DNA of 32,000 bases from an uncultured Anaerolineales bacterium (GCA_964551735.1 CAZKEF010000019.1:51958-83957); one strand, 5' to 3'. Shown: positions 5,828 through 29,602, numbered from the stretch's first letter. Made by a program: numbers and translations. The notes: generated by a model from the letters alone, not told the origin.

Positions 5828-7171
5828 CTACTCAGCCGCCAACACCTCCGCCGTCCAAGCGCGCGCCTGCCGGGCAAACGCGGGCACGTCCACCCGAGCC
5901 AGCAACCAGATGCAGGCCAGCAGCCCGACGGCCTCGATCATGAACACGGCCGCGTAAGCCACCGACAGTTGGCCGCTGATCGCCAACGCCACATCGCGTA
6001 CCACACCGCCCATCGCGATGCCGGCCCCGCGCGATGCCAGTTGGATCACCGACCACAACGCCAGGTACGCGCCCGCCTGCCGCTCCACGTTGACCGCCAT
6101 CAGCAGGCTGACCCCGCCCACGGTGAAGATGCCGAACCCCAGGCCGAATACCACCAGGATCGGCCGGACCACAGACAGGTTTTCGGTCAGCGAGGCCGCG
6201 CCCAATGCCAGCAGCGGCAGCGCCAGCAACGCCAGGCCCCAGCTCGTGGTGCCCGCCTGCTGGTCGGGCCGCCGGCGCCGGGTCAGCGCCAGGGTGCCCA
6301 CCATGCTCACCACCACCCCTATGCCCCAGTACGCGTTGAAGCGCGTCGTCTCGCCCGCGGCCAGGCCGAACACGTCGCCGCCGAACGGCTCCAGCATGGC
6401 GTCTTGCATGAACGCGAAGAATGCGGACGCGGCCAGGAAGATCGCGTAGCGGCGCGCGCGGGAATCGGCCCACAGTGCGCCGAAGGTGCGGCGAAACGAC
6501 GGCGGGGCTGGGGATGACTGGGGGGCTGCCGCAACCGGCCGCTCCTCCCGCCACACCGAGGCGAACCAGAAGAAGGCTGCGCCGGCCATGCCGATAGCCA
6601 CCAGCCGGGCGAAAGCAGCCAGGTCGTATACGGGCATCACCCCCGCGTAGATCGCCGGGATGAACGCGAAGCTGACCACCAGCATGAGCTGCACGATGCC
6701 CACCGCCTGGCCGCGCTTCTCGTAAGGCGCGCTGTCGTGCACCAGCGCCAGGAACGGTGCGCCGGAGATCAGCGTGCCCACGCCGTAGGTGAGGAAAGAC
6801 GCCAGCGCTAACCCCCAGCCCAACAGGGAGCCCGCGTCCCGCGCGATGGCAACCACCGACAACGGCAGCAGCGGCAGCGCCAACAGCATCAGCAGCCGGC
6901 CCAGCCAGATGTACGCCACCCGCCGGCTGCCCCGGATCGGCCGCGTATCCGAACGGTGACCGGCCCACAACGTCAACGGGGCCAGCAGGTAGCGCAGCGC
7001 GGTCAGCAACGCCACCGGCCACGCCGCGACGCCCAGGTCGCTGATCAAGATCCGGTTCCAGACTGCGGACGTCAACAGGTCGGCCAGAGACGAGCCGATG
7101 TGGAAGCTGCCCAGCTTGAAAGAACGTGGGATGCTGAAGCTGACCTCTTGTTCAGCATTGCCTTCAACCAT
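5828..7171 (-). CDS. BCD/PucC-family MFS transporter
   Basis: The protein is polytopic and hydrophobic. The N-terminal signature FKLGSFHIGSSLADLLTSAVWNRILISDLGVAAWPVALLTALRYLLAPLTLWAGHRSDTRPIRGSRRVAYIWLG matches my memory of the PucC/LhaA (BCD) MFS family. The start is ambiguous: ATG 7171 has AGGAG 12 nt upstream, ATG 7183 abuts that AGGAG, and the ORF extends to a TTG at 7243. Confidence 0.75.
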   Translation of the reverse strand: MVEGNAEQEVSFSIPRSFKLGSFHIGSSLADLLTSAVWNRILISDLGVAAWPVALLTALRYLLAPLTLWAGHRSDTRPIRGSRRVAYIWLGRLLMLLALPLLPLSVVAIARDAGSLLGWGLALASFLTYGVGTLISGAPFLALVHDSAPYEKRGQAVGIVQLMLVVSFAFIPAIYAGVMPVYDLAAFARLVAIGMAGAAFFWFASVWREERPVAAAPQSSPAPPSFRRTFGALWADSRARRYAIFLAASAFFAFMQDAMLEPFGGDVFGLAAGETTRFNAYWGIGVVVSMVGTLALTRRRRPDQQAGTTSWGLALLALPLLALGAASLTENLSVVRPILVVFGLGFGIFTVGGVSLLMAVNVERQAGAYLALWSVIQLASRGAGIAMGGVVRDVALAISGQLSVAYAAVFMIEAVGLLACIWLLARVDVPAFARQARAWTAEVLAAE

Positions 7172-7286
7172 AATCCGACGCATCTCCTGTCCACCAAAAC
7201 CAATGCCCCCGGGCAATCTGCCCAAGGACATTGAGTGTATCAATCAGCGGCGTCTGGCACAGTAAATCAGCTTGCTATCTGGCCGT

Positions 7287-19049: not shown

Positions 19050-19312
19050 GCATCCGCCCAAACACGCTTTCGTTGCCACTCGCGAGCGCACTGCAAAATA
19101 GCCGAAACGTCCAGGCTGCTGTGGCAGCGTTTATCACGAGATCGCCATTCGTTATGCGTGATTTACAGGCAAGAGCCGAATTTTATTGAGTTAGATGCAA
19201 TTCTACCTTGCACAGGGCGGGTTGTCAAATCAATCCTGTGCGGCAAGACATGGCAGCCAATTGTTGATATCCCCGCAGGGTGGGATGAAAAGCACCGTTC
19301 AAAGGCCTGCCC

Positions 19313-21097
19313 ATGAAACAACGAACTGCGCTGACGGGTTGGCTCCTTCGCCTGCGCCAGGCATTATCCGCCCACCGATGGGTCATCATCGGCCTGCTCT
19401 GGCTAGCCACTCTCCTCTTAGGCTATATCGGTTTCAGCAACTACGCGATGGCTACAGGCGGTGTCCAAGCGCGCATGGACACGCTTTATCTGACGATCCA
19501 GCTCTTTATCTTGGAGTCGGGATCGGTGCCCGGTCCGAAGCCGTGGGAACTGGAGGCCGCGCGGTTGCTGGCCCCCACTGTGGCGGCATACACCGCCGTG
19601 CAAGCGTTGGCGCTGCTGTTTGCAGAGCAATTCCAGGCCCTTCAGCTCCGCTTCGCACGCCACCACGAGATCATCTGTGGGCTGGGCCGTCGCGGCACGC
19701 TGTTGGCCCGTTCTTTTCGGGCGCAGGGCCATCGGGTTGTCGTCATCGAACAGGACCACAACAACGACGCCATCAGAGCCTGCCGGCAGCAGGGTATCAT
19801 CGTGCTCATTGGTGACGCCCGCAACGCTGATCTGCTCCTACGCGCCGGCGTGCTGCACGCTCGCCATCTGATCGCCGTGTGCGACGATGATGGGGTAAAC
19901 GCCGAGATCGCCGTGCAGGCCCGACGGCTGTCCGCTCGCCGGGGCGGGTTGCCCCTCACGTGCCTGGTGCACCTGGTGCAACCGCAGTTGTGTGAGTTGT
20001 TGCACGACCGCAGCTTCGATTCAGCCAATCATAACACCTTCCGCCTGGAATTCTTCAATACGTTTGACCTGGGCGCGCAACTCTTGCTGGAGAGATTCCC
20101 GCCGCTGCGGGAAGGGCAAACCGGGCCACCGCACATGGTGCTCCTGGGGTTCGGCAGCCTGGGGCAAAGCCTGGCCCTCCGCGCCGCACGCGCTCGGACG
20201 TGTGGCCGTGAACCCCCCAATGAGCGCTTGCGGATCACAGTGGTCGATCGCGAGGCCGAGCGAAAAGTCAAGCTGATCATTCTGCGGTATCCCCGGCTGC
20301 ACGAAGCGTGTGACTTGGTTCCGTGCGCGATTGACCTGCGGGGGCCCGAGTTTCAACAGGCGGACTTCCTGCGGGATGAGGCGGGCCAGCTGTGCGTCAC
20401 CGCTATCTACAGTTGCCTTGACGACGATGCACAGGGGCTAATGGCCGCGCTGACGTTGGCAGCCCATGTGCGCGATCAGGATATCCCTATCGTCATCCGC
20501 ACCAGCAGCCGCGGTGGCCTGGCAAGCCTGCTCTACCGGGATGACGCCACAGACAGTTACAGCTCACTGCACGCATTTCCTCTCCTGGAGTACAGTTGCA
20601 CGCCGAGCCTGGTTTTGGGGGGCATGCATGAAACCGTGGCCCGCGCATTGCATCAACGGTATGTGCAACAAGGCGAGGCGCAAGGCCAGACCCCCGCATC
20701 GAATCCCTCCATAGTGCCCTGGGACCAATTGACGGCCGAAATCCAAGAGGGCAACCGCACCCAGGCGGATGCGATCAGCGCGATGCTCCGTGCAGCAGGG
20801 TACAGCCTGGCCCCACTCACAGATTGGAGCGCCTGGCGATTCCGCTTCCCCGAAGCTGATGTCGAGCTGATGGCCCAATTGGAGCACAAACGTTATGTTA
20901 CCGAACGGCTCCGTGCCGGCTGGTCCCTGGGGCCTAAAGACATCGCCGAAAAAACGAATCCGAACCTGGTGCCGTGGGAACAACTGACGCCCGACGCGCA
21001 AGAGCGCACCCGCCACCCCATCCGTGAGCTACCCTGCATCTTGGCCGAGGCCGGGCTTGAAGTGTATCCGATGAAAAGGGGTGGCAAACATGGATGA
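19313..21097 (+). CDS. Channel-like 2-TM protein with tandem Rossmann (TrkA-N/RCK-like) domains and a C-terminal bipartite RyR module
   Basis: The N-terminus has TM1 WVIIGLLWLATLLLGYIGF, a pore-helix-like DTLYLTIQLFILESGSVPGP (no TVGYG filter) and TM2 LLAPTVAAYTAVQALALLF. Rossmann 1 is EIICGLGRRGTLLARSFRAQGHRVVVIEQD. Rossmann 2 is HMVLLGFGSLGQSLALRAA. The C-terminal RyR-like repeats are ARALHQRYV...VPWDQLTAEIQEGNRTQADAI and LEHKRYVTERLRAGWSLGPKDIAEKTNPNLVPWEQLTPDAQERTRHPIRELPCILAEAGLEV. Confidence 0.75.
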   Translation: MKQRTALTGWLLRLRQALSAHRWVIIGLLWLATLLLGYIGFSNYAMATGGVQARMDTLYLTIQLFILESGSVPGPKPWELEAARLLAPTVAAYTAVQALALLFAEQFQALQLRFARHHEIICGLGRRGTLLARSFRAQGHRVVVIEQDHNNDAIRACRQQGIIVLIGDARNADLLLRAGVLHARHLIAVCDDDGVNAEIAVQARRLSARRGGLPLTCLVHLVQPQLCELLHDRSFDSANHNTFRLEFFNTFDLGAQLLLERFPPLREGQTGPPHMVLLGFGSLGQSLALRAARARTCGREPPNERLRITVVDREAERKVKLIILRYPRLHEACDLVPCAIDLRGPEFQQADFLRDEAGQLCVTAIYSCLDDDAQGLMAALTLAAHVRDQDIPIVIRTSSRGGLASLLYRDDATDSYSSLHAFPLLEYSCTPSLVLGGMHETVARALHQRYVQQGEAQGQTPASNPSIVPWDQLTAEIQEGNRTQADAISAMLRAAGYSLAPLTDWSAWRFRFPEADVELMAQLEHKRYVTERLRAGWSLGPKDIAEKTNPNLVPWEQLTPDAQERTRHPIRELPCILAEAGLEVYPMKRGGKHG

Positions 21098-23570
21098 AAA
21101 AACATCTGATTTCGGATGGACGCAGGCCCAGATCGCACAATATGAGCTGGCCTTCCCGCGCTATCAGCAATATGCCGACACGCTGCACAGCGTGCTGAAC
21201 CAGGCCACCAAGAAACATGCGCCCCACGCGATCGTACAAGCGCGACCCAAGGCCATCGCCAGTTTCGCGGAGAAGATCCAGCGCAAGCGCCACAAGTACC
21301 GCGACCCGATCAACCAGATCACCGACCTGTGCGGCGGCCGAGTTATCACGCACACCCCGGAGGAAGTCCGGGCGATGTGCGCCTTCATCGAGCAGCATTT
21401 CACCATTGACTGGGATAACACCATCGATGTATCGCAGCGCCTCAAGCCGACCGAGTTCGGCTATCGGTCAGTGCATTACATCGCGCAGTTCAAGCCCGGT
21501 GTCTTCCCCAACGATATTGTCACCACGGAAATCCCAGAGACAGTGTACGGCCTCAAAGCCGAAATCCAAGTCCGCACCATTTTGGAGCACGCCTGGGCTG
21601 ATTTCAACCATCGGCTGGTCTATAAGAGCCCCTTCCCCATCCCCACCAAATGGCAGCGCGAATTCGCGGGCCTGGCCGCCATCCTGGAACGCACAGACAC
21701 CGCGTTTGCCGCCATTGAAACCGGATTCAAGACCTACGCGACCAACTATGGCACCTACATGACCGCTGAACAGATGCGGGATGAGATCGCTTTGCTGGAG
21801 ATCGTCATGGCATGTGACCCCGACAACGTCGATCTCGCCCATCGGATCGGCAAGTTGGCGGTTACGTTGGGCGATTGGAAGAAGGCGATCAGCATCTTCT
21901 CACGTTATGTTCACACAGGCTATCAACCCATCCTCAAGGACCTCGGGATCGCGCTGTGCAAGCTGCACGTTGAGAGGCCGGACAGCCCCGAGTATCAGCA
22001 AGGCCGGCGCTACCTGGAGCAGGCCAGCGCGCCTGAATACCGGGATGCGGATGCCCTGGCGTCGCTGGCAAGCACCTGGAAACGGTCTGACCCGGATCGG
22101 GCGCGGCAACTCTACCGGCAAGCATTTGAGGCGAATCCCGAAGATCCGTATGCGTTGGGGCAGTACCTGGAATACGAGATCGCCCATCGACGCGACATGC
22201 ACCTGGCAACACTGCTCCGCCCGGTCATCGAAGCGGCGATCGAACGGTGTCGCGAGCGCGCAGAGGTGGGGGTCGACCTGCCGTGGGCATACTACGACAT
22301 CGGCAGGTTCTCGCTACTGCTAGATAGACCCTATGATAGCCTGAACGCTTACATTAGGGCCGTCCACTTAACCAACGATGACTGGATGGTCGAAACCTCA
22401 TTGCAGTCGGTGGAGCGTCTCGCCGTGGTGGCTGCGATCCTACCAGGTCATGCATGGGTGCGACGCTTCCTATGGCTGGCGCGCGCGACCAAATTCGACG
22501 TGGCGCAGGCCCGAGAGGAGCTCAAGCGGCTGGCATCAGCCGGCCAAGCGCCGATTCGCGGGCCAGTGGTATTGGTGGCCGGGGCCTGCGATGCCAGCGA
22601 GGAGCACCTGATCCAGGGCTACCGGCCCCTGTTGATGACCGCCTTTGCCGGCTTCCACGGCACCATCATCTCAGGCGGCACCCGCGCCGGGGTCGCCGGC
22701 CTGGCGGGTGACGTGCAGCAGACCTACCCGGCCGACATCCGCACCATCGGCTATGTCCCGCAGCGACGCCCCACCGATGTCATGATGGATGAGCGCTACG
22801 GTGAGATCCGTTACACCACGGGCGATGACTTCAGCCCGCTGGAGCCGCTCCAATACTGGACCGACCTGGTCGCCTCCGCGATTGCCGCGTCCGATGTCAA
22901 GCTGATCGGCATGAGCGGAGGGACCATCGCCGCAGTGGAATACCGTATGGCCCTGGCGCTGGGCGCACGGGTCGCGGTGATTGAGGCCAGCGGCCGGGCC
23001 GCGGCCAGGCTACTTGCCGACGACAACTGGCGCACCTCGGAAGCGCTCCTGCTCTTGCCGGCCGAGGGACAGATCGTGCACGAATTCGTCCGCCCAACGA
23101 TGGACCAACTTCTGCCTGCACAGCGAGAACACATCGGCCAGGCCATCCACCGGGCCTACTGTGAAGCAGAGGCCAACCTCCTGCAGTACGACGATCCTGC
23201 GTTGGCGCCCTGGGGCGCGTTGCTGGACTATCTGAAGGAATCCAACCGGCTGCAGGCTGATCATATCCCGGAGAAGATGCGCCAGATCGGCTGCCGCATT
23301 GTGCCGGCGCACGGCCGCGCAGCAACACCGATCACGTTCACAGATGCCGAGATTGAGACGCTGGCTTGTGCCGAGCATGCGCGTTGGGTCATCGAGCGCG
23401 TACGCGACGGCTGGAAACCGGGCGCGCAACGCGACGTGTTGCACAAAATCAGTCCCTACCTCACAGCATGGGACGCGCTGCCCGAGGAAATCAAAGAGCG
23501 CAGCCGATGCATCGTGCGCAAGATCCCGACATTCCTTGCCGAGGTGCAGCTCGAAATTCAACGCGGGTGA
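21090..23570 (+). CDS. RelA/SpoT-family nucleotide pyrophosphokinase fused to TPR repeats, an LSDAT-type SLOG domain and a bipartite RyR module
   Basis: The ATG at 21090 overlaps the upstream stop (ATGGATGA) and has AAGGGGTGG upstream; an alternative GTG lies at 21081. The synthetase motifs are all present: ARPKAIASFAEKIQRK, DLCGGRVI, EFGYRSVHYI, AEIQVRTILEHAWADFNHRLVYK. The middle region is TPR-like (aa ~240-470). The SLOG part reads GPVVLVAGACD...TIISGGTRAGVAGLAGD...IGYVP...LIGMSGGTIAAVEYRMALALGARVAVIEASGRAAARLLAD, and the last motif resembles the GSGRaADlLA of TRPM-type LSDAT domains. The C-terminal RyR-like repeats are IHRAYCE...APWGALLDYLKESNRLQADHI and AEHARWVIERVRDGWKPGAQRDVLHKISPYLTAWDALPEEIKERSRCIVRKIPTFLAEV. 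Confidence 0.8.
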   Translation: MDEKTSDFGWTQAQIAQYELAFPRYQQYADTLHSVLNQATKKHAPHAIVQARPKAIASFAEKIQRKRHKYRDPINQITDLCGGRVITHTPEEVRAMCAFIEQHFTIDWDNTIDVSQRLKPTEFGYRSVHYIAQFKPGVFPNDIVTTEIPETVYGLKAEIQVRTILEHAWADFNHRLVYKSPFPIPTKWQREFAGLAAILERTDTAFAAIETGFKTYATNYGTYMTAEQMRDEIALLEIVMACDPDNVDLAHRIGKLAVTLGDWKKAISIFSRYVHTGYQPILKDLGIALCKLHVERPDSPEYQQGRRYLEQASAPEYRDADALASLASTWKRSDPDRARQLYRQAFEANPEDPYALGQYLEYEIAHRRDMHLATLLRPVIEAAIERCRERAEVGVDLPWAYYDIGRFSLLLDRPYDSLNAYIRAVHLTNDDWMVETSLQSVERLAVVAAILPGHAWVRRFLWLARATKFDVAQAREELKRLASAGQAPIRGPVVLVAGACDASEEHLIQGYRPLLMTAFAGFHGTIISGGTRAGVAGLAGDVQQTYPADIRTIGYVPQRRPTDVMMDERYGEIRYTTGDDFSPLEPLQYWTDLVASAIAASDVKLIGMSGGTIAAVEYRMALALGARVAVIEASGRAAARLLADDNWRTSEALLLLPAEGQIVHEFVRPTMDQLLPAQREHIGQAIHRAYCEAEANLLQYDDPALAPWGALLDYLKESNRLQADHIPEKMRQIGCRIVPAHGRAATPITFTDAEIETLACAEHARWVIERVRDGWKPGAQRDVLHKISPYLTAWDALPEEIKERSRCIVRKIPTFLAEVQLEIQRG

Positions 23571-23585
23571 AAGGAGGCGGACACC

Positions 23586-26567
23586 ATGGCATCGGAATCC
23601 AATAGATACGATGTCTTCATCAGCTATCCGCACGCCCAAAAGACGATGGCCGATGCCGTGTGCGCGACGTTGGAGCAGAATAAGATCCGCTGCTGGATCG
23701 CGCCCCGTGACGTGCTGCCCGGCGAACCGTTCGCGAAAGCCATCATCCGCGCCATGAACGAAAGCCGTTTGTTCGTCCTCGTCTTCAGCGCCGAGACCAA
23801 CGAGTCAAATCACGTAAAAAACGAAGTTGAGCGGGCGGTGTCCAAGGGGCTCTCGATCATCGTGTTCCGCGTTGAAGATGTCGTGCCTACCGAAGAGATG
23901 GAGTACTACCTGTCGCGGCGCCATTGGCTGGACGCGATGACGCCACCGATCGAGGCCCATTTCCAGAAACTGATCCAGGCCATCAGGGCGTTGCTGGCCA
24001 TCCCATCCTTGGAGGCCGCGCCGGACCAAAGCGAACAGAAGGTGGCCGACTTGCGCGTACGCGCCCGGGAAGCCGCGGCGCAAGCCGACTGGGACCTGGC
24101 CGTGGCCCTGCTAGGTCAGGCTGCGACGGTCTCACCCGATGACCCCAAGACCGCCGAGATGTTACAGGCCGTCCGGCGTGACCAGCATCTGGCTGACCTG
24201 CGCCGGCAAGCCCAAGAACGTCTGGCCATCCGCGACTGGACCGGCGCCATTGCCATCCTGGAGGAAGCCTCCAGCTTGCAGCCGGATGACGCCGACCTAA
24301 CGGCCATCTTGCGTCGCGCACAGAGCAGTCAGCGTCTGATCGAGCTGCGCGGCCAGGCTGAGGAGTTCCTGACCGTTCGAGATTGGGCCGGCGCCATCGC
24401 GATCTTGGAGAAAGCCATACAACTGGCCCCCGACGACCCTGAACTTACTGGCAGCTTGCGCCGCGCGCAACGCGGCCAAAGCCAGGATGATCTCAAAGCC
24501 CAGGCCCTGCACCTGGCCGCACAACACGATTGGCAGGGCGTGCTCGTGCTGCTGAAGCAGGCGCCCGAGCTGGCCGCAGAGGACGCCGAAGTGCAGCGGC
24601 TGGCAGCGCAAGCGGCGCGTGAGCAGCGGATCGCTGATCTGCAGGTGCGCGCCAAGTCAGCGTACAGCGCCCGGCAATGGGCGCAGGCGCTGCCGTTGCT
24701 GGAAGAGCTGCGCGCGTTGACGCCCGATGACGCCGCCGCCCGCGATATGCTGGCCACGACCACCCGCGAGGGCGCCCGCCAGAGGCAACTCGACGCGCTG
24801 ATAGCCCATGCCGAGGACACCGTGACCCGCGCACGCAGCGCGGCCACTACAGGCCAATGGGAGGCGGCCGAGCGCGGTTGGCAGGATGCCGCCTACGCAT
24901 GGGGCACCGTAGTCACCGCGCTGGAAGAGCACCTCGCGATGGCGCCCCAGGACGCTACGCGGCGGGAGCGCCTGACCGAGGCTCAGCGCGGGCAAAAGGA
25001 GGCGGCACAACAGGCTGGACGCCTGCGGGATCTGGCCCAGCGCTATGCCGACGCGCAGGCCGCGCTCGACGCGGCCCGGCCCGACCAGGCCGTGCCGTTG
25101 CTCAGCGCCATCATAGCCGAGGCGCCGGGCTATCGCGATACGGTGGAGCTGTTGCGCCGTGCGCAACGCAAGGTGAAAGGTGGTCCCTTCCCGCGCCGCC
25201 GCATGCTCTGGATCGGCGCAGCCGCACTGGTGCTCATCGTGGTAACGGCGGCAATCTTGCTGTCGGGCGTCTTGCAGCGCGGCGCCGCGTCTGAGCGCGC
25301 GACGACATTGCAGCAAGCGCTGACGAACCAATGGGTGGACGCGCAGATCCGCGGCACTGGCGCGGCCTACGGCGACTGCATCACGGCCCGGCTGACGCGG
25401 CGCATCCCAGACATCCTGCCGCTTGACCTCGCCCAGGGCACCCTTCTGCTCAGCAAAACCTCAACAGTGCAGGACATGGTCGTGCTGCGGGTCCGGGCCA
25501 TCATCAACCAGGATGGTGGCCTAACCCCCACAGACGCGATCCGCATCGCCGATGACAACCCCCAGGAGTATCTGATCGAAGCATATGGGCTGAACAGCAG
25601 CCTGGCGGCGCCGGGCGTCGGGGCCGCCTTCGTCGTCGCCGGCCCGGCAGACGAAGCTGTTCAAAGCACCCTGCGGGCAGCCGCCCAGCTCACCCCTGAC
25701 GGCGCCGCACAGGCGGGCGCAGCGCTGCAATTGGCGCTTTGGCTGCACGCTGACCACGAAAACCGTGCTGCCATCTGCCAGCGCATCAACTGCAAGGCCG
25801 AGGACCTGGCGCTGGCAGAACAGATCCTGGGGCTGGCCGGCTTCGGTCCGCCCCCCACACCCACTGCCACGGCCACAGCCCTGCCGACCGCCACCCTGAC
25901 GGCGGAACCAACGATCGCCACGCCCTTCCTGCGCCGCGCAGCCACCGACACCCCCACGCCGACCGCCACTGCGACATCCACGCCGCTGCCATCAGCCACC
26001 ATGACCGCCACCGCAACGCCGGCCCGCAGCGCTACACCGACGCCACGCCCAAGCGCCACCGCAACGCGCACCCCGGCCGCGCCGCTGCGCATCGTCACGC
26101 CAACGCGTCCGCCTGCGCCGCCGGCGTCCGGCCTGGCCCCGCAGACACCGGCCGACGGCCAGATCTTCATCGGCCGCAGCACTGTCATCCGGCTGGCCTG
26201 GACGCCCGCCACACGGCCGCTGGCTGGGGACGAATATTACCTGGTGACGATCCTTTTCCCTCACGAACAAGCAACATGGACCGACTCTCAATGGACGCGC
26301 ACTCCAGAGGTCACCGTACCGGCTTACCTGTACGATAATGTGACCGGCGACCGCAGCTTCCGCTGGCAGGTCTCCCTGGTGCGCCTGAACGCGGGCGACC
26401 CTTCAGGAGACCCGCAAGGCAAGACGACCCTGATCGTTGCACCCGGCGCGTGGCGCACCTTCAGGTGGCTGCCCGAGGCTGAAGGCGGGGGCGGGGGTGG
26501 GGGCGGCGAGGTCATACCGACGAACACCCCCCGCCCTGAAGAACCGACAATAACGCCCAGGCCTTAA
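23586..26567 (+). CDS. N-terminal TIR-domain protein with 49-aa helical repeats, one TM helix and a large extracytoplasmic C-terminal region
   Basis: An AAGGAGG RBS lies 8 nt upstream, and the gap from the previous stop is 15 nt. The TIR_2-like N-terminus is YDVFISYPHAQKTMADAVCATLEQNKIRCWIAPRDVLPGEPFAKAIIRAMNESRLFVLVFSAETNESNHVKNEVERAV. Five to six repeats of the DWxxAIAILEEAxxLxPDD type follow. The TM helix is RRRMLWIGAAALVLIVVTAAILLSGVL, with positive charges on the N-side, so the TIR domain is cytoplasmic. After it come a ~190-aa domain, a PT-rich linker, a ~130-aa beta-rich domain and a Gly8 tract. Confidence 0.85.
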   Translation: MASESNRYDVFISYPHAQKTMADAVCATLEQNKIRCWIAPRDVLPGEPFAKAIIRAMNESRLFVLVFSAETNESNHVKNEVERAVSKGLSIIVFRVEDVVPTEEMEYYLSRRHWLDAMTPPIEAHFQKLIQAIRALLAIPSLEAAPDQSEQKVADLRVRAREAAAQADWDLAVALLGQAATVSPDDPKTAEMLQAVRRDQHLADLRRQAQERLAIRDWTGAIAILEEASSLQPDDADLTAILRRAQSSQRLIELRGQAEEFLTVRDWAGAIAILEKAIQLAPDDPELTGSLRRAQRGQSQDDLKAQALHLAAQHDWQGVLVLLKQAPELAAEDAEVQRLAAQAAREQRIADLQVRAKSAYSARQWAQALPLLEELRALTPDDAAARDMLATTTREGARQRQLDALIAHAEDTVTRARSAATTGQWEAAERGWQDAAYAWGTVVTALEEHLAMAPQDATRRERLTEAQRGQKEAAQQAGRLRDLAQRYADAQAALDAARPDQAVPLLSAIIAEAPGYRDTVELLRRAQRKVKGGPFPRRRMLWIGAAALVLIVVTAAILLSGVLQRGAASERATTLQQALTNQWVDAQIRGTGAAYGDCITARLTRRIPDILPLDLAQGTLLLSKTSTVQDMVVLRVRAIINQDGGLTPTDAIRIADDNPQEYLIEAYGLNSSLAAPGVGAAFVVAGPADEAVQSTLRAAAQLTPDGAAQAGAALQLALWLHADHENRAAICQRINCKAEDLALAEQILGLAGFGPPPTPTATATALPTATLTAEPTIATPFLRRAATDTPTPTATATSTPLPSATMTATATPARSATPTPRPSATATRTPAAPLRIVTPTRPPAPPASGLAPQTPADGQIFIGRSTVIRLAWTPATRPLAGDEYYLVTILFPHEQATWTDSQWTRTPEVTVPAYLYDNVTGDRSFRWQVSLVRLNAGDPSGDPQGKTTLIVAPGAWRTFRWLPEAEGGGGGGGGEVIPTNTPRPEEPTITPRP
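24087..24854 (+). repeat. Intragenic tandem repeat with an exact 147-nt (49-codon) period, coding TPR-like helical hairpins
   Basis: The D/Q-W codons that open each unit fall at 24087, 24234, 24381, 24528 and 24675, which are exactly 147 nt apart. A longer 180-nt unit then runs to 24855. The units are diverged at the DNA level. Confidence 0.8.
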
Positions 26568-26608
26568 GGTTGGCAGCCGCGAACCAGACGCGCAGAGGAG
26601 GGACAACC

Positions 26609-29602
26609 ATGAAAACAAACCCGACACGCCACCGCACCCCCCGCATAGGGCTGCTGGCGCCGCTGCTGATCGCGACGCTGATCCTGGTCGGCGGCCTCAA
26701 CAGCGCCGCCGCGCCGCCGGCTCAAACAGGCGCCCCCTTCGAGGCGCGGCCGCTGCCGCCGGAGGCGCTCTCGTGGGGCGGATCTCCCGCCGTCAGTGCG
26801 CAAGCCTCGCGCAGCCCCAAGCTCGACTCATCCCTGGACGGCCTGGCCGCCGCAGCCCAGGATTCCCCGCAAACGGCATTGGCTCTGGCCCTCTCCCGCT
26901 CGCTGAAGTTGTCGGGAGATCGGGTTCAAGTACAGATCGTCACCCACGCGGCCGGGCTGCAACGAGCCATCCAGGCGGTGGCCGAGTCCGGCGGCGAAGT
27001 GACCAAAATCGGCAGCGACGCAGCCCTGATCCAGGGATGGCTGCCGGTCACGGCCCTGGAGGCCGTAGCCGCGCACGACGATATCTATCGCATCCACCGG
27101 CCGGCGGAACTGATCTACCTGGAACACCCGCAGGCTGGCAGTGTGACGACCGAAGGGCTGGCGGCGCTCAACGGCCCGGCCTGGCACACGGCCGGCTACC
27201 GGGGCGCTGGCGTCAAGATCGGCATCATTGACGGCGGCTTCCTGGGCTACACAGGCCTGCTGGGCACGGACCTGCCAGCGTCGGTCACTGCAAAAAACTT
27301 CGTGGACGGCGAAACCGACGGGCAGGTTGACGGGACCTCCAAACACGGCACCGCCTGCGTGGAGATCATCTACGATGTGGCGCCTGATGCGACCTTCTAC
27401 CTGGCCAAGATCGCCACGAACCTGGATCTGCAAGCAGCCGTGGCCTGGCTCAAAGACACGCACCACGTAGACGTGATCTCTACCTCCATCGGGTGGTACC
27501 ACTTGACGCCGGGCGACGGCACCGGTGAGTTTGCCGACCTGGTGCAGGATGCCCGAGACGCCGGCATCTTGTGGGCCACGGCGGCCGGGAGCGTACGCGA
27601 GGCGCACTGGGGCGGCCTGTACTATGACCCCGGCGGCACCGACACGCATCACTATAACCTCGAACAGGACGTGAACTATTTCGGCCCCGGCGACGGGAAC
27701 GCTTACCTGATCCCTGCGGGGTACCCGGTGACCGTCTTGCTCCGCTGGGATGACTGGACGGTCGTGAACCAGGATTACGATCTCTTCCTGCTGCGTTGGA
27801 ACGGCGAAAGCTGGGATATCGTTGCCGAAAGCAGTCAGGTTCAAGACGGCAGCCCGGGTCAGACGCCCACCGAGGACGTCTCAATCGTGGCCAGCGGCGC
27901 ATCTGCGCCCTATGGCTTCGTCATCGTGCGTTATGACAGCGACCGCGCGGTCAACTTCGAGGTGTTTGCGCCCAACCCTGGCGCGCGCCTCGATGAGATC
28001 TTGCCTGCCCGCAGCCTGGCTAACCTGGCGGACGCGCCGGACGTGGTCAGCGTGGCGGCGGTAGACGTGGTGTCGCCCTACCCGCAGGAGGTGTTCAGCT
28101 CAGAAGGGCCGACCAACGGACCCGGCGGCGCGGAAACGGGCGGGTTCATCAAGCCGGATATCGCCGCCTATTCCAGCGTGTCCACCGTCAGCTACGGCAC
28201 TACAGACAAGTTCAGCGGCACCTCGGCCGCTGCGCCCCACGTGGCCGGCGCCGCGGCGTTGGTGTTGAACGCCTACCCAGCCTATACCCCGAACCAAGTG
28301 GAATCGTTCCTGGAGGGGCGTGCCGTGGACATGGGGGCCAGCGGGATGGATACGATCTACGGCTACGGTCGGCTGCACCTGGGCGCCCCGCCGTCAGCCA
28401 CCACCACAACCCCCTCTCCCAGCCCAACGCCGACAGGAACGGTGACACGCACCGCGACGCCCACGGTGACCCGGACGCCAACCCCGACGATCACCCGAAC
28501 CCCCACGGCCAGGCTGCTCTTCCTGCCCCTGGTGCTGAAAAGCGGACTCTGCGACATTTATGAGCCGAACGATAGCATCGCTGCGGCCTGGGGTCCCCTG
28601 ATATCGGGCCAGGATTACCGCGCACGCCTATGCAAAGGCGACTACGAGGATAACTACTACCTGAACGCACTGCACACCCAACCGCTGGTCGTCAGGATAC
28701 GCCTGCCAGCCGCTCTGGTGAACCACACTGACGCCTGGATTTACCATGAGAGCAACCTCAAGACACCGCTTCCCGGTTGCGGCCGCGGCCCCATCACCAG
28801 CACGGATGAAACCGTTAGCTGTGCGATCACCCTGGACGGCCGCTACACGATCCGGCTATACACACACGACTCGAACGTCTACTATGAGAACAACCAGGAT
28901 TACATCTTGACCGCGACCTTTGCGCCCCAGGGCGGCACGCCCGTGTCACGAACACTCCTCTCCGTCGGCGATGCAACGGTCCTGGAGGGGTACTCAGGCT
29001 TTAACACAGGCACGGCAGCGGACATGTGGGCGGGCTATGATGACGGCATGGAACCCGACGGCAAGATCGTGCGCAGCCTGATCAAGTTCGACCTGAGCAG
29101 TGTGCCCGCGGGCGCCACCGTGCAAAGCGCCAAGCTGCGGGTCTACTACATGGGCTACTATGACTTTAGCAACCGCGAGCGCACCATCACCGCATACCGG
29201 TGCGTCGGCAACTGGACTGAGCTGGGCGTCAATTGGAACAACAAACCCAGCCCGGGCACGGCCTACGGCAGCGTAGTCATCATCTCAAACACCAATTGGG
29301 GCTGGCGCGAGTTGGACGTGCAGGGCCTGGTGCAGGGGTGGGTCAACGGCAGCATCCCCAACCAGGGCGTCATGCTGCGCGGACCGGAGGTCTCCGGCGC
29401 CGACTCGTCCTATCGCACTTTCAGCACGCGTGAGGGCCCCAACGCGCCCCAGTTGGCGATCACCTACCTTGCTGTAGCAGCCGCAAGCCCACCGCCGACA
29501 ATGCAGGCGCCTGTGCCGGCTGGCCCGAGCCTGCGTGAACAGTTGGGCAGCCCGAGCGCACCGACGGACGCCGACGGCAGGGAGCAGCAGATGTCGCGTT
29601 AG
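26609..29602 (+). CDS. Secreted S8 (subtilisin-like) serine peptidase with C-terminal PPC-like and DNRLRE-like domains
   Basis: A GAGGAGGG RBS lies 6 nt before the ATG at 26609. The signal peptide is MKTNPTRHRTPRIGLLAPLLIATLILVGGLNSAAA. The catalytic triad contexts are GVKIGIIDGGF (Asp), HGTACVEII (His) and GTSAAAPHVAGAAALV (Ser). After a PT linker come LLFLPLVLK, then CDIYEPNDSIAAAW (pre-peptidase C-terminal-like) and LLSVGDATVLEG...SLIKFDLSSVPAGATVQSAKLRVYY...WTELGVNWNNKP (DNRLRE-like, from recall). Confidence 0.85.
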   Translation: MKTNPTRHRTPRIGLLAPLLIATLILVGGLNSAAAPPAQTGAPFEARPLPPEALSWGGSPAVSAQASRSPKLDSSLDGLAAAAQDSPQTALALALSRSLKLSGDRVQVQIVTHAAGLQRAIQAVAESGGEVTKIGSDAALIQGWLPVTALEAVAAHDDIYRIHRPAELIYLEHPQAGSVTTEGLAALNGPAWHTAGYRGAGVKIGIIDGGFLGYTGLLGTDLPASVTAKNFVDGETDGQVDGTSKHGTACVEIIYDVAPDATFYLAKIATNLDLQAAVAWLKDTHHVDVISTSIGWYHLTPGDGTGEFADLVQDARDAGILWATAAGSVREAHWGGLYYDPGGTDTHHYNLEQDVNYFGPGDGNAYLIPAGYPVTVLLRWDDWTVVNQDYDLFLLRWNGESWDIVAESSQVQDGSPGQTPTEDVSIVASGASAPYGFVIVRYDSDRAVNFEVFAPNPGARLDEILPARSLANLADAPDVVSVAAVDVVSPYPQEVFSSEGPTNGPGGAETGGFIKPDIAAYSSVSTVSYGTTDKFSGTSAAAPHVAGAAALVLNAYPAYTPNQVESFLEGRAVDMGASGMDTIYGYGRLHLGAPPSATTTTPSPSPTPTGTVTRTATPTVTRTPTPTITRTPTARLLFLPLVLKSGLCDIYEPNDSIAAAWGPLISGQDYRARLCKGDYEDNYYLNALHTQPLVVRIRLPAALVNHTDAWIYHESNLKTPLPGCGRGPITSTDETVSCAITLDGRYTIRLYTHDSNVYYENNQDYILTATFAPQGGTPVSRTLLSVGDATVLEGYSGFNTGTAADMWAGYDDGMEPDGKIVRSLIKFDLSSVPAGATVQSAKLRVYYMGYYDFSNRERTITAYRCVGNWTELGVNWNNKPSPGTAYGSVVIISNTNWGWRELDVQGLVQGWVNGSIPNQGVMLRGPEVSGADSSYRTFSTREGPNAPQLAITYLAVAAASPPPTMQAPVPAGPSLREQLGSPSAPTDADGREQQMSR

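Follow-up and report, generated by a model that had tools for sequence, protein, structure and literature searches.

Gene A, as we call it here, lies on the forward strand of a 32,000-nucleotide stretch of DNA from an uncultured Anaerolineales bacterium (GCA_964551735.1 CAZKEF010000019.1:51958-83957; the window). It encodes a membrane protein laid out like an RCK-gated K+ channel, in which the K+ selectivity filter is missing and a tandem RyR module is present at the C-terminus, and it is followed by a gene for a RelA-SpoT protein (gene B) and a gene for a TIR protein (gene C). What does a channel-like protein with an altered filter do in such company? We favour the reading, held at about even confidence, that A is a membrane effector of a bacterial immune-type nucleotide-signalling system, with a pore that would not be K+-selective and would be gated by a TIR signal.

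Pore-like and Rossmann domains of gene A

The whole protein was modelled with AlphaFold2 as a monomer on 32 homologs (mean predicted local distance difference test (pLDDT) 84.9, predicted TM-score (pTM) 0.77). From the N-terminus, the model showed a first helix, transmembrane (TM) helix TM1, a short helix, a loop and TM2 (Table 1), followed by Rossmann beta-alpha-beta domains from residues 119 and 274 and a helical module at residues 424-586. Residues 18-43 and 85-104 were also marked as membrane segments by hydropathy, and with its net charge of +5 the N-terminus is expected in the cytoplasm. In Foldseek, the full-length channel GsuK matched the whole of A over 535 columns (E 1e-10). Further matches were the TrkA gating ring, with which the tandem RCK domains aligned over 404 columns (E 8e-11), Slo1, MthK, the CASTOR gating ring, and Repeat12 of RyR3. 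The MthK-like layout proposed in an initial annotation of this DNA is therefore real at fold level, being MthK/GsuK-like in both the AlphaFold2 model and the Foldseek matches.

A departs from a K+ channel at the filter. The segment DTLYLTIQLFILESGSVPGP (residues 56-75, nucleotides 19478-19537) lies between the two TM segments. The initial annotation had placed two TM helices around it and had seen no K+ filter, and hydropathy, AlphaFold2 and a motif scan bore this out: T-[VI]-G-[YF]-G occurs nowhere in A, and G[YFL]G is found only within the two glycine motifs of the Rossmann domains. The filter position holds I-L-E-S-G-S instead, with the family consensus L-[E/Q/N]-S-G-[A/S]-[V/I]. The pore helix and loop together follow the family motif D-x-[LF]-Y-x-[TSA]-L-Q-L-F-x-L-[EQN]-S-G-[AS]-[VI]-x-G-P, and a longer family signature continues after G-P as x-x-W-[EQ]-L-[EQ]-x-A-R-x-L-A-P.

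Conservation was scored in bits per column over 106 sequences of the family. The pore helix, loop and TM2 carried 2.75-2.88 bits, compared with 2.76 for RCK1, 2.6-2.7 for the RyR repeats and 2.42 for TM1. Y59 and L64 were kept in 106/106 sequences, R84 in 104, Q63 and P88 in 103 each, and G70 in 99, and position 68 was E in 70, Q in 15 and N in 13. The conserved positions of the pore region include the polar residues D56, Q63, E/Q/N68, S69 and R84, and those of TM2 are W78, R84, P88 and a small-residue face (A91, T94, A95, A98). As judged from this alignment, the replaced filter is under strong selection, and a functional pore or filter is favoured over a plain anchor because conserved polar residues stand in a re-entrant membrane segment.

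Modelled in isolation (AlphaFold2 monomer, pLDDT 84.7), the TM domain folded into TM1, a re-entrant pore helix, a loop and TM2. All 50 PDB matches listed by Foldseek for this domain were tetrameric cation-channel pores. Among them were the pore of MthK, with a TM-score of 0.52-0.60 and a root-mean-square deviation (rmsd) of 3.5 A over 83 columns, NaK, NaK mimicking a cyclic-nucleotide-gated (CNG) channel, Slo2.2, KcsA, KCNQ1 and ionotropic glutamate receptors (iGluRs). At fold level, the modelled pore of A appears to be K+-channel-derived with its filter replaced. Pfam Ion_trans_2 gave no match in full-length A, and we do not file A as a K+ channel because pore homology was not found at the sequence level. 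An hhalign match of the TM profile to MthK (hand-entered sequence) covered 15 columns and was rejected as spurious.

The initial annotation had also read two GxGxxG Rossmann domains, and both motifs are intact (GLGRRG at 123, GFGSLG at 279). RCK1 matched Pfam TrkA_N at residues 120-207 (E 1.3e-20) and had PDB sequence matches to the RCK domains of TrkA, KefC and GsuK. RCK2 gave no Pfam match and was identified by fold only. In RCK1, G123 and G128 are invariant and G125 and E146 nearly so, and in RCK2, G279, G284 and D312 are invariant; both domains thereby keep the acidic residue that ends strand 2 (E146, D312). The N-lobe of RCK1 follows the inner helix directly, as in RCK/KTN-gated channels.

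This layout is widespread. A search of 1.84 billion cluster representatives with the TM-domain profile put the family at about 1,000-2,000 clusters at 50% identity (1,994 matched, 970 of them at E up to 1e-10), and its full-length matches were again about 600 residues long. Database names for the family are 'NAD-binding protein' or 'Kch'. The pore-like domain occurs almost only in the 600-residue layout or together with extra RyR repeats. The layout is more than chance, because at least 549 clusters at 90% identity, and also 317 GTDB species genomes, have the TrkA_N-RyR arrangement of about 600 residues, and because the pore helix, loop and TM2 are conserved as strongly as the nucleotide-binding domains. 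Among the homologs, some of 730-791 residues (P0042, P0068, P0064, P0102, P0261) have at least three RyR repeats, apparently including a second R12 module, and in two (P0147, P0267) TM1 is preceded by about 230 additional residues to which no domain is assigned.

The operon, the RyR module and the proposed signal

Genes A, B and C form one tight operon. Gene A stops with TGA at 21095-21097, and the overlap of this stop with the start of the next gene, reported in the initial annotation, can be read directly in the sequence. The start of B is more likely the ATG at 21090 (8-nucleotide overlap, AAGGGG before it) than the alternative GTG at 21081 (17-nucleotide overlap), and gene C starts 15 nucleotides after gene B, behind AAGGAGG. 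The PDB matches of gene B were RelP/RelQ-type synthetases and RyR, and B also matched the PADLOC model PDC-S33 (E 3e-18). In gene C, Pfam TIR_2 matched with E 7.6e-20, and in an alignment with a TIR domain of TIR-STING, Glu80 falls on the Glu of the conserved W-x-x-x-E motif, which we take to be the catalytic position of TIR domains. The TIR domain is followed by about 400 residues of helical repeats, a TM helix at residues 538-568 and a large extracytoplasmic part, in which the linkers are rich in Pro/Thr and eight Gly in a row stand close to the C-terminus. The protein may link its TIR activity to a cue from outside or from the envelope.

That A ends in a RyR module, as first annotated, is agreed by Pfam (RyR, PF02026, two stretches, E 8e-14), by sequence matches to Repeat12 of RyR1-3 and by fold matches to Repeat12 of human RyR3. 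The two tandem repeats of A build a single pseudo-symmetric module. RyR3 Repeat12 has been crystallised with ATP, ADP and AMP-PCP (PDB titles; 6uhh, 9l9b). Phage R12 proteins bind TIR-made 2'/3'cyclic ADP-ribose (cADPR) with nanomolar affinity, or cleave it (2026 preprint, PMC13232231). One of these R12 proteins, RyDEP, has a His/Asp dyad and is a glycosidase; the majority of the phage homologs tested bind the ligand and do not cleave it, and the ligand residues of RyDEP are reported to be conserved across the R12 family; the study covers viral proteins only (PMC13232231). In the literature searched, no paper was found on host RyR-domain proteins in TIR-type signalling systems. The module of A had at first been treated as an appendage, and here we depart from the initial annotation: because phage RyR-domain proteins bind a TIR-made signal, the R12 module of A is, by analogy, probably the key and likeliest receptor, as a prediction.

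In Foldseek, the module matched RyR-domain proteins of Rhodococcus phage Finch, Arthrobacter phage Xenomorph, Erwinia phiEa2809 and Yersinia TG1 over about 144 columns (rmsd 4.5-5.7 A, probability 1.0). In PHROGs it gave weak matches only, to families of unknown function. The motifs H-x-x-[YWF], [NDH]-P-x-x-V-P-W and ESNR/xDR are common to the RyR modules at the ends of A and B and to those in the NTPase partners of A homologs, which hold their R12 at the C-terminal position where STAND proteins have a sensor domain. In A the motif residues are H447-x-x-Y450, N465-P and N481-R482 in repeat 1, and H525-x-x-Y528, N551-P and T-R in repeat 2; they are conserved in the family, and their spacing fits RyDEP (H75, W78, H100 and D117; PMC13232231). 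Repeat 2 retains His and Asp in the family consensus, and repeat 1 has Asn family-wide. The A and B of the window would bind rather than cleave, because by motif spacing the Asp of the RyDEP dyad is missing from them. In the many family members that keep the His/Asp pair, R12 might cleave the signal and so make the effector self-limiting, like some CARF effectors. That the R12 of A binds a TIR-made cADPR-type signal is a tentative proposal.

RyR modules also occur in other proteins near A homologs. A stand-alone SLOG (LSDAT_prok)-RyR protein without a RelA-SpoT domain was seen at one locus (L014 1738-3006), and small RyR-only proteins of 147 and 212 residues adjoin A homologs at two others (L038 8402-8842; L079 5611-6246). 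These cases suggest that hosts possess a modular element which acts as a sensor or like a sponge.

From these features we propose the following mechanism. By analogy with GsuK and BK, four A subunits would assemble a P-loop pore from TM1, pore helix and TM2, and their eight RCK/KTN domains would form a cytoplasmic gating ring. R12 would receive a signal derived from nicotinamide adenine dinucleotide (NAD+), either a cADPR isomer or a related ADP-ribose compound, from the neighbouring TIR protein, and the RCK ring would transmit this binding to the gate at the inner helix, with the Rossmann sites adding control by NAD(H), adenine nucleotides or possibly an alarmone. Since TVGYG is replaced by the conserved L-[E/Q/N]-S-G-x-[V/I], we infer that the open pore is not K+-selective; it would dissipate the membrane potential or ion gradients, the expected output being a non-selective leak of cations and depolarisation. 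Gene B would be a second effector acting on the same signal and arresting growth by alarmone-type pyrophosphotransfer, a parallel role suggested by its RelP/RelQ-type similarity and PADLOC PDC-S33 match. Two effector-like proteins with a common end module beside a TIR enzyme with Glu80 point to the logic of a second-messenger immune system. A more specific version, in which A is a P-loop cation channel opened at R12 by a TIR-made cyclic-ADPR-type molecule and thereby a prokaryotic counterpart of the cADPR-RyR link, we consider possible and rather doubtful.

Could A instead be a non-conducting anchor or scaffold, which holds the soluble RelA-SpoT/SLOG/RyR protein and the NTPase-RyR partners to the membrane through RyR-RyR or RCK contacts and leaves the output to B and the TIR protein? 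The very similar R12 modules at the ends of A and B would suit this, as would the missing K+ filter, the dimerisation of RyDEP through its R12 helices (PMC13232231) and the description of the RyR domains of animal RyR1 as protein-protein interaction sites (PMC4820453). However, few parts of A are conserved as strongly as the pore helix, loop and TM2, which contain buried polar residues; this is unexpected for a tether, and both Rossmann sites have been kept intact. Moreover, the two repeats of the module are complete in A and in B alike, so that neither protein depends on another to build it, and minimal pairs of TIR and A occur with no other RyR protein. The very high conservation of the pore helix and loop thus weakens the membrane-tether alternative, which the initial annotation had left beside the effector, and we regard a pure scaffold as unlikely.

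Neighbourhoods and distribution of the A family

To describe the gene neighbourhoods of A homologs, open reading frames (ORFs) were called in 80 GTDB loci and their domains labelled by jackhmmer seeded from Pfam-verified proteins, and unlabelled neighbour genes were clustered and their representatives scanned. Counts are for genes within 6 kb of A, given for all 80 loci and then for the 25 fully visible ones, which extend at least 6 kb on both sides. TIR was found in 23/80 and 12/25 loci. DUF4062, mostly in DUF4062-NACHT proteins and presumably TIR-like from its Pfam clan, was found in 15/80 and 8/25, and either of the two in 34/80 and 16/25. A second RyR-bearing protein was present in 28/80 and 15/25 loci, and an NTPase with or without a detected RyR module in 22/80 and 11/25; these NTPases are about 900 residues at full length and have weak nSTAND5/AAA matches. 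Less frequent were a small YpsA-like SLOG or SLOG-SLATT protein (16/80; 7/25), WD40 (14/80; 8/25), NUDIX (11/80; 7/25) and ClpB-like AAA (11/80; 6/25). Any partner was present in 55/80 and 22/25 loci. As background, the 142 genes more than 6 kb from A included 4 TIR genes and 1 RyR gene.

Homologs mostly without TIR or RelA-SpoT neighbours would have spoken against the initial annotation, and one or the other was found in 13 of the 25 fully visible loci (28/80 overall). The coupling to RelA-SpoT (RSH) read in the window belongs to a minority of loci (8/80, with 11-13 anywhere in the locus; 3/25), and TIR-like genes and a second RyR protein are commoner. The nucleotide-gated membrane effector is supported in part, by the fold, the intact Rossmann motifs and the conflict-system context, and it fits because the homologs are strongly embedded in nucleotide-signalling conflict systems.

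The partners recur as cassettes, on which independent gene calls with precomputed Pfam agree: (i) A with RelA-SpoT-TPR-SLOG-RyR, often with NUDIX, and TIR, the type of the window; (ii) NTPase-RyR, small SLOG, A and TIR, in this order; (iii) A followed by ClpB-like AAA and NTPase-RyR; and (iv) DUF4062-NACHT-TPR beside A. Cassette (i) was found in Chloroflexota, Gemmatimonadota, Acidobacteriota, Thermodesulfovibrionia, Actinomycetota and Syntrophaceae. A minimal pair of TIR (364 residues) and A is flanked by an ABC (ATP-binding cassette) transporter and recA at L085, and TIR-A pairs without another RyR protein are also found at L035, L050 and L076. A protein of about 185-230 residues, with a GHR...AEGAD-type motif and weak YpsA/YAcAr SLOG matches, is encoded directly upstream of A homologs at nine loci (L047, L048, L051, L058, L068, L025, L026, L063, L071), on the same strand, usually less than 150 nucleotides away and often behind an NTPase-RyR gene. 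It has no counterpart in the window, where a SLOG domain is found inside gene B.

The 317 relatives in GTDB species genomes are 39-58% identical to A. They come from Chloroflexota, Acidobacteriota, Gemmatimonadota, Planctomycetota, Bacteroidota/Ignavibacteriales, Thermodesulfovibrionia/Nitrospiraceae, Deltaproteobacteria/Syntrophales, Actinomycetota, Clostridia-type genomes and one Methanoperedens archaeon, so that the family spans at least eight bacterial phyla and one archaeon. As read from these sequences, its patchy distribution is of the horizontal-transfer type. No functional description of the family was found in the searchable literature, which excluded Burroughs et al. 2015 (NAR), where SLOG and SLATT are said to be defined.

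Several results weigh against the effector reading. For the pore, the Foldseek E-values of the isolated TM domain are weak (0.15-0.66), as is expected because the domain has only about 90 residues; Pfam Ion_trans_2 matches none of 24 family TM domains (E up to 10); the TM-domain profile finds no match among all PDB sequences; and hhalign aligns it in register with NaK (hand-entered sequence) at only 5.5% probability. For the receptor, a tblastn search of 50,697 phage genomes with the R12 module gave no match, the ligand residues of RyDEP were mapped to A by motif spacing and not by direct alignment, and the Asp position of repeat 2 is Thr in the A of the window and Ser in B. For the immune context, PADLOC has no model matching A, no relatives of A were found on IMG/VR viral contigs, and no recognised partner is present in 3/25 fully visible loci or in 8/36 loci with at least 3 kb on both sides. 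Finally, in related genomes the cluster occupies a conserved chromosomal site among housekeeping genes, in the order miaA, yraN, rnhB, rplS, trmD, solute-binding protein, 370-residue gene, two small ORFs, A-B-TIR and CBM96 proteins. This order holds where A is only 59-60% identical to that of the window, which indicates long vertical residence. The G+C of the cluster is 0.58-0.62, somewhat under that of its flanks (0.63-0.69). Because of the conserved site and the absence from viral contigs, the cluster is not obviously a mobile defence island.

Part of this would suit a physiological, non-immune cation channel tuned by NAD(H), adenine nucleotides or an alarmone, with the operon as a stress or developmental module. 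The site between rplS-trmD-type housekeeping genes and secreted hydrolases, the missing viral relatives and the want of a PADLOC model would all agree with such a role, and RCK/KTN domains are classical metabolic sensors of K+ transport. In contrast, the patchy spread over many phyla including an archaeon, at 40-58% identity, and the strong but variable ties to TIR, DUF4062-NACHT, P-loop NTPases, SLOG, SLATT-containing proteins and NUDIX are the pattern of a conflict system, and loss of the K+ filter speaks against a role in K+ homeostasis. We therefore consider a physiological channel improbable.

Alternatively, A might act upstream, sensing a membrane or ionic perturbation such as phage DNA injection or depolarisation and switching on the TIR and RelA-SpoT enzymes by way of its cytoplasmic ring and R12 module. 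A is the constant member beside many different enzymatic or NTPase partners, and gene C is itself membrane-anchored; yet A is constant because of the way in which the loci were gathered, R12, SLOG and KTN bind ligands and are not output domains, and the NTPase, TPR and WD40 partners already supply typical sensors. In known TIR systems, moreover, sensing falls to the TIR protein and execution to its partner (bioRxiv 10.64898/2025.12.03.692087), which leaves a sensor role for A very unlikely. Least of all do we expect the R12 of A and B to be a RyDEP-like glycosidase that destroys cADPR-type signals at the membrane as an off-switch: RyDEP has this activity and the family consensus of repeat 2 holds His and Asp at the matching motif positions, but Thr or Ser takes the Asp position in the window and Asn in repeat 1 throughout the family, most of the phage homologs tested bind and do not cleave, the NUDIX genes are the obvious hydrolases of these loci, and the conserved pore domain and RCK ring would be left unexplained.

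Surroundings of the operon and comparison with known systems

The features of the window are collected in Table 1. Of the two small membrane ORFs upstream of A, counterparts 60-65% identical are found upstream of the cluster in close relatives (L081-L084), and their membership of the A-B-C system is uncertain. They are not SLATT- or SLOG-like; the 101-residue ORF was considered as a SLATT-like partner and rejected, no similarity being found. In close relatives, a gene of 984-986 residues with an N-terminal TM helix and TPR lies between the small ORFs and A (L081 5998-8958, L082, L083, L084 and L001 3275-6226). The 264-nucleotide spacer at 19050-19312 of the window contains no remnant of this gene by tblastn, and its absence points to gain or loss of an accessory component.

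Table 1. Positions of gene A, its domains and other features of the window, in nucleotides from the first letter
Feature	Position	Strand	Basis
Gene A: 594-residue protein with 2TM pore-like domain, two RCK/KTN domains and tandem RyR (R12) module	19313-21097	+	
TM1 (outer helix), residues 22-48	19376-19456	+	AlphaFold2 helix; hydropathy 18-43
Pore-helix-like segment (residues 54-63) and filter-position loop (64-77)	19472-19543	+	AlphaFold2, conservation
TM2 (inner helix), residues 78-113	19544-19651	+	AlphaFold2, conservation table
RCK1/KTN Rossmann domain, GLGRRG (123-128) and E146	19661-20098	+	Pfam TrkA_N, PDB matches
RCK2, second Rossmann domain, GFGSLG (279-284) and D312	20126-20581	+	AlphaFold2, fold match
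Tandem RyR repeats, one R12-type module, residues 424-588	20582-21076	+	Pfam, fold matches
A/B junction: AAGGGG Shine-Dalgarno, B start overlapping A stop	21073-21097	+	Sequence read
Gene B: RelA_SpoT (small-alarmone-synthetase-like), TPR, SLOG (LSDAT_prok), tandem RyR	21081-23570	+	Pfam
Gene C: TIR, helical repeats, one TM helix, Pro/Thr-rich extracytoplasmic region	23586-26567	+	Pfam
Small membrane ORF, 101 residues	18523-18828	+	Sequence; overlaps next ORF in GTGA
Small membrane ORF, 74 residues	18825-19049	+	Sequence
Secreted S8 peptidase with CBM96	26570-29602	+	
CHAT (caspase-like) protein, 698 residues	10762-12858	+	Pfam CHAT, E 4.7e-34
PucC-family protein	5828-7243	-	E 2e-73
ORF with Big_13 (bacterial Ig-like), 1,425 residues	1505-5782	-	

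The S8 peptidase gene starts 3 nucleotides after the stop of the TIR gene, and CBM96-bearing proteins, including an M4 peptidase, are also found behind the TIR gene in relatives (L081 16682-19815). Another gene of conflict-system type in the window encodes a lone CHAT protein, which lies beside miaA about 6.5 kb upstream of the cluster. Farther away, the Big_13 ORF is in the stretch of lowest G+C (0.54-0.60) and may be a separately acquired surface protein. Next to it is a gene for a PucC-family protein of the major facilitator superfamily (MFS); such proteins are typical of phototrophs and hint that the host is phototrophic and Chloroflexota-like. The relatives of the cluster and its synteny point to Chloroflexota/Anaerolineae.

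If the effector reading is true, A stands for a large uncharacterised effector family that joins RCK-gated P-loop channels, TIR nucleotide signalling and RyR Repeat12, and in which a K+ channel scaffold has been turned into a killing or depolarising device through a change of the filter. It would also give a host-side meaning to the binding and destruction of 2'/3'cADPR by phage R12 proteins, with phages copying or competing with a host receptor domain, and would offer a small bacterial model for the gating of channels through R12 by cADPR-type ligands, which is debated for animal ryanodine receptors. The operons would further hold prokaryotic versions of the TRPM-type SLOG domain and NUDIX hydrolase, and it is possible that A was the evolutionary source of the link from cADPR to the ryanodine receptor. 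If A is merely a tether or a housekeeping channel, what remains is an unusual domain architecture.

In structure, A comes closest to GsuK, MthK, BK and TrkA. GsuK has a canonical K+ filter and is not known from a TIR or conflict-system setting. Among full-length channels it gave the best fold match to A, and the two also match in RCK sequence. In this multi-ligand-gated K+ channel of Geobacter sulfurreducens (PDB 4gx0/4gx1/4gx2/4gx5), a 2TM P-loop pore is followed by two RCK domains in one chain, as in A, and RCK1 binds NAD+ or ADP (PDB titles). GsuK is without a RyR module, whereas A has L-E-S-G-S-V at the filter position and no Ion_trans_2 signal. In MthK, BK (Slo1) and TrkA, the Rossmann N-lobe of RCK follows the inner helix as it does in A, and the tandem-RCK fold matches that of TrkA. 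However, MthK is Ca2+-gated and each of its chains has a single RCK, TrkA is a soluble regulator of TrkH, and all three serve K+ transport and have no R12 module.

CASTOR, POLLUX and DMI1 have a non-canonical filter, with Ser/Ala-Gly instead of GYG. They have an RCK gating ring like A (fold match 6o7a, E 1.7e-6) and differ from it in being eukaryotic nuclear-envelope proteins with four TM helices, Ca2+ regulation and no R12. Animal ryanodine receptors and the oomycete PKDRR are, like A, P-loop cation channels with tandem RyR repeats, which in PKDRR also lie near the C-terminus (PMC4820453). In contrast to A, they are Ca2+-permeable channels of eukaryotes, of the 6TM giant or PKD type, and lack RCK. 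Together with the phage RyDEP proteins they are the nearest relatives of the putative sensor of A. Phage RyDEP and RyR-domain proteins have in common with A the R12 fold, apparently the H-x-x-[WY] and D/N-R type motifs, and the arena of TIR signals (PMC13232231). They are small soluble viral counter-defence proteins, sponges or glycosidases, whereas the R12 of A and B is host-encoded and fused to a channel-like protein and an alarmone synthetase.

Thoeris-type systems are nearest to that of A in their logic. In them, a TIR gene adjoins a membrane protein with a nucleotide-sensing domain, as C and A do, and the two-gene pairs of TIR and A are arranged likewise. Their membrane effectors include Macro-TM (type II), DUF2270 (type V), SLATT (type VII) and an 'ion channel' (type X), and no effector with RyR, TrkA_N, PF02026 or PF02254 appears in the text of the study or in the tables covered (bioRxiv 10.64898/2025.12.03.692087). 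The loci of A differ from Thoeris in often adding layers of RelA-SpoT-SLOG-RyR, NTPase-RyR and NUDIX. Taken together, A would be classed with the nucleotide-gated membrane effectors or RCK-gated P-loop channels, as a putative member whose sensor and filter are both novel.

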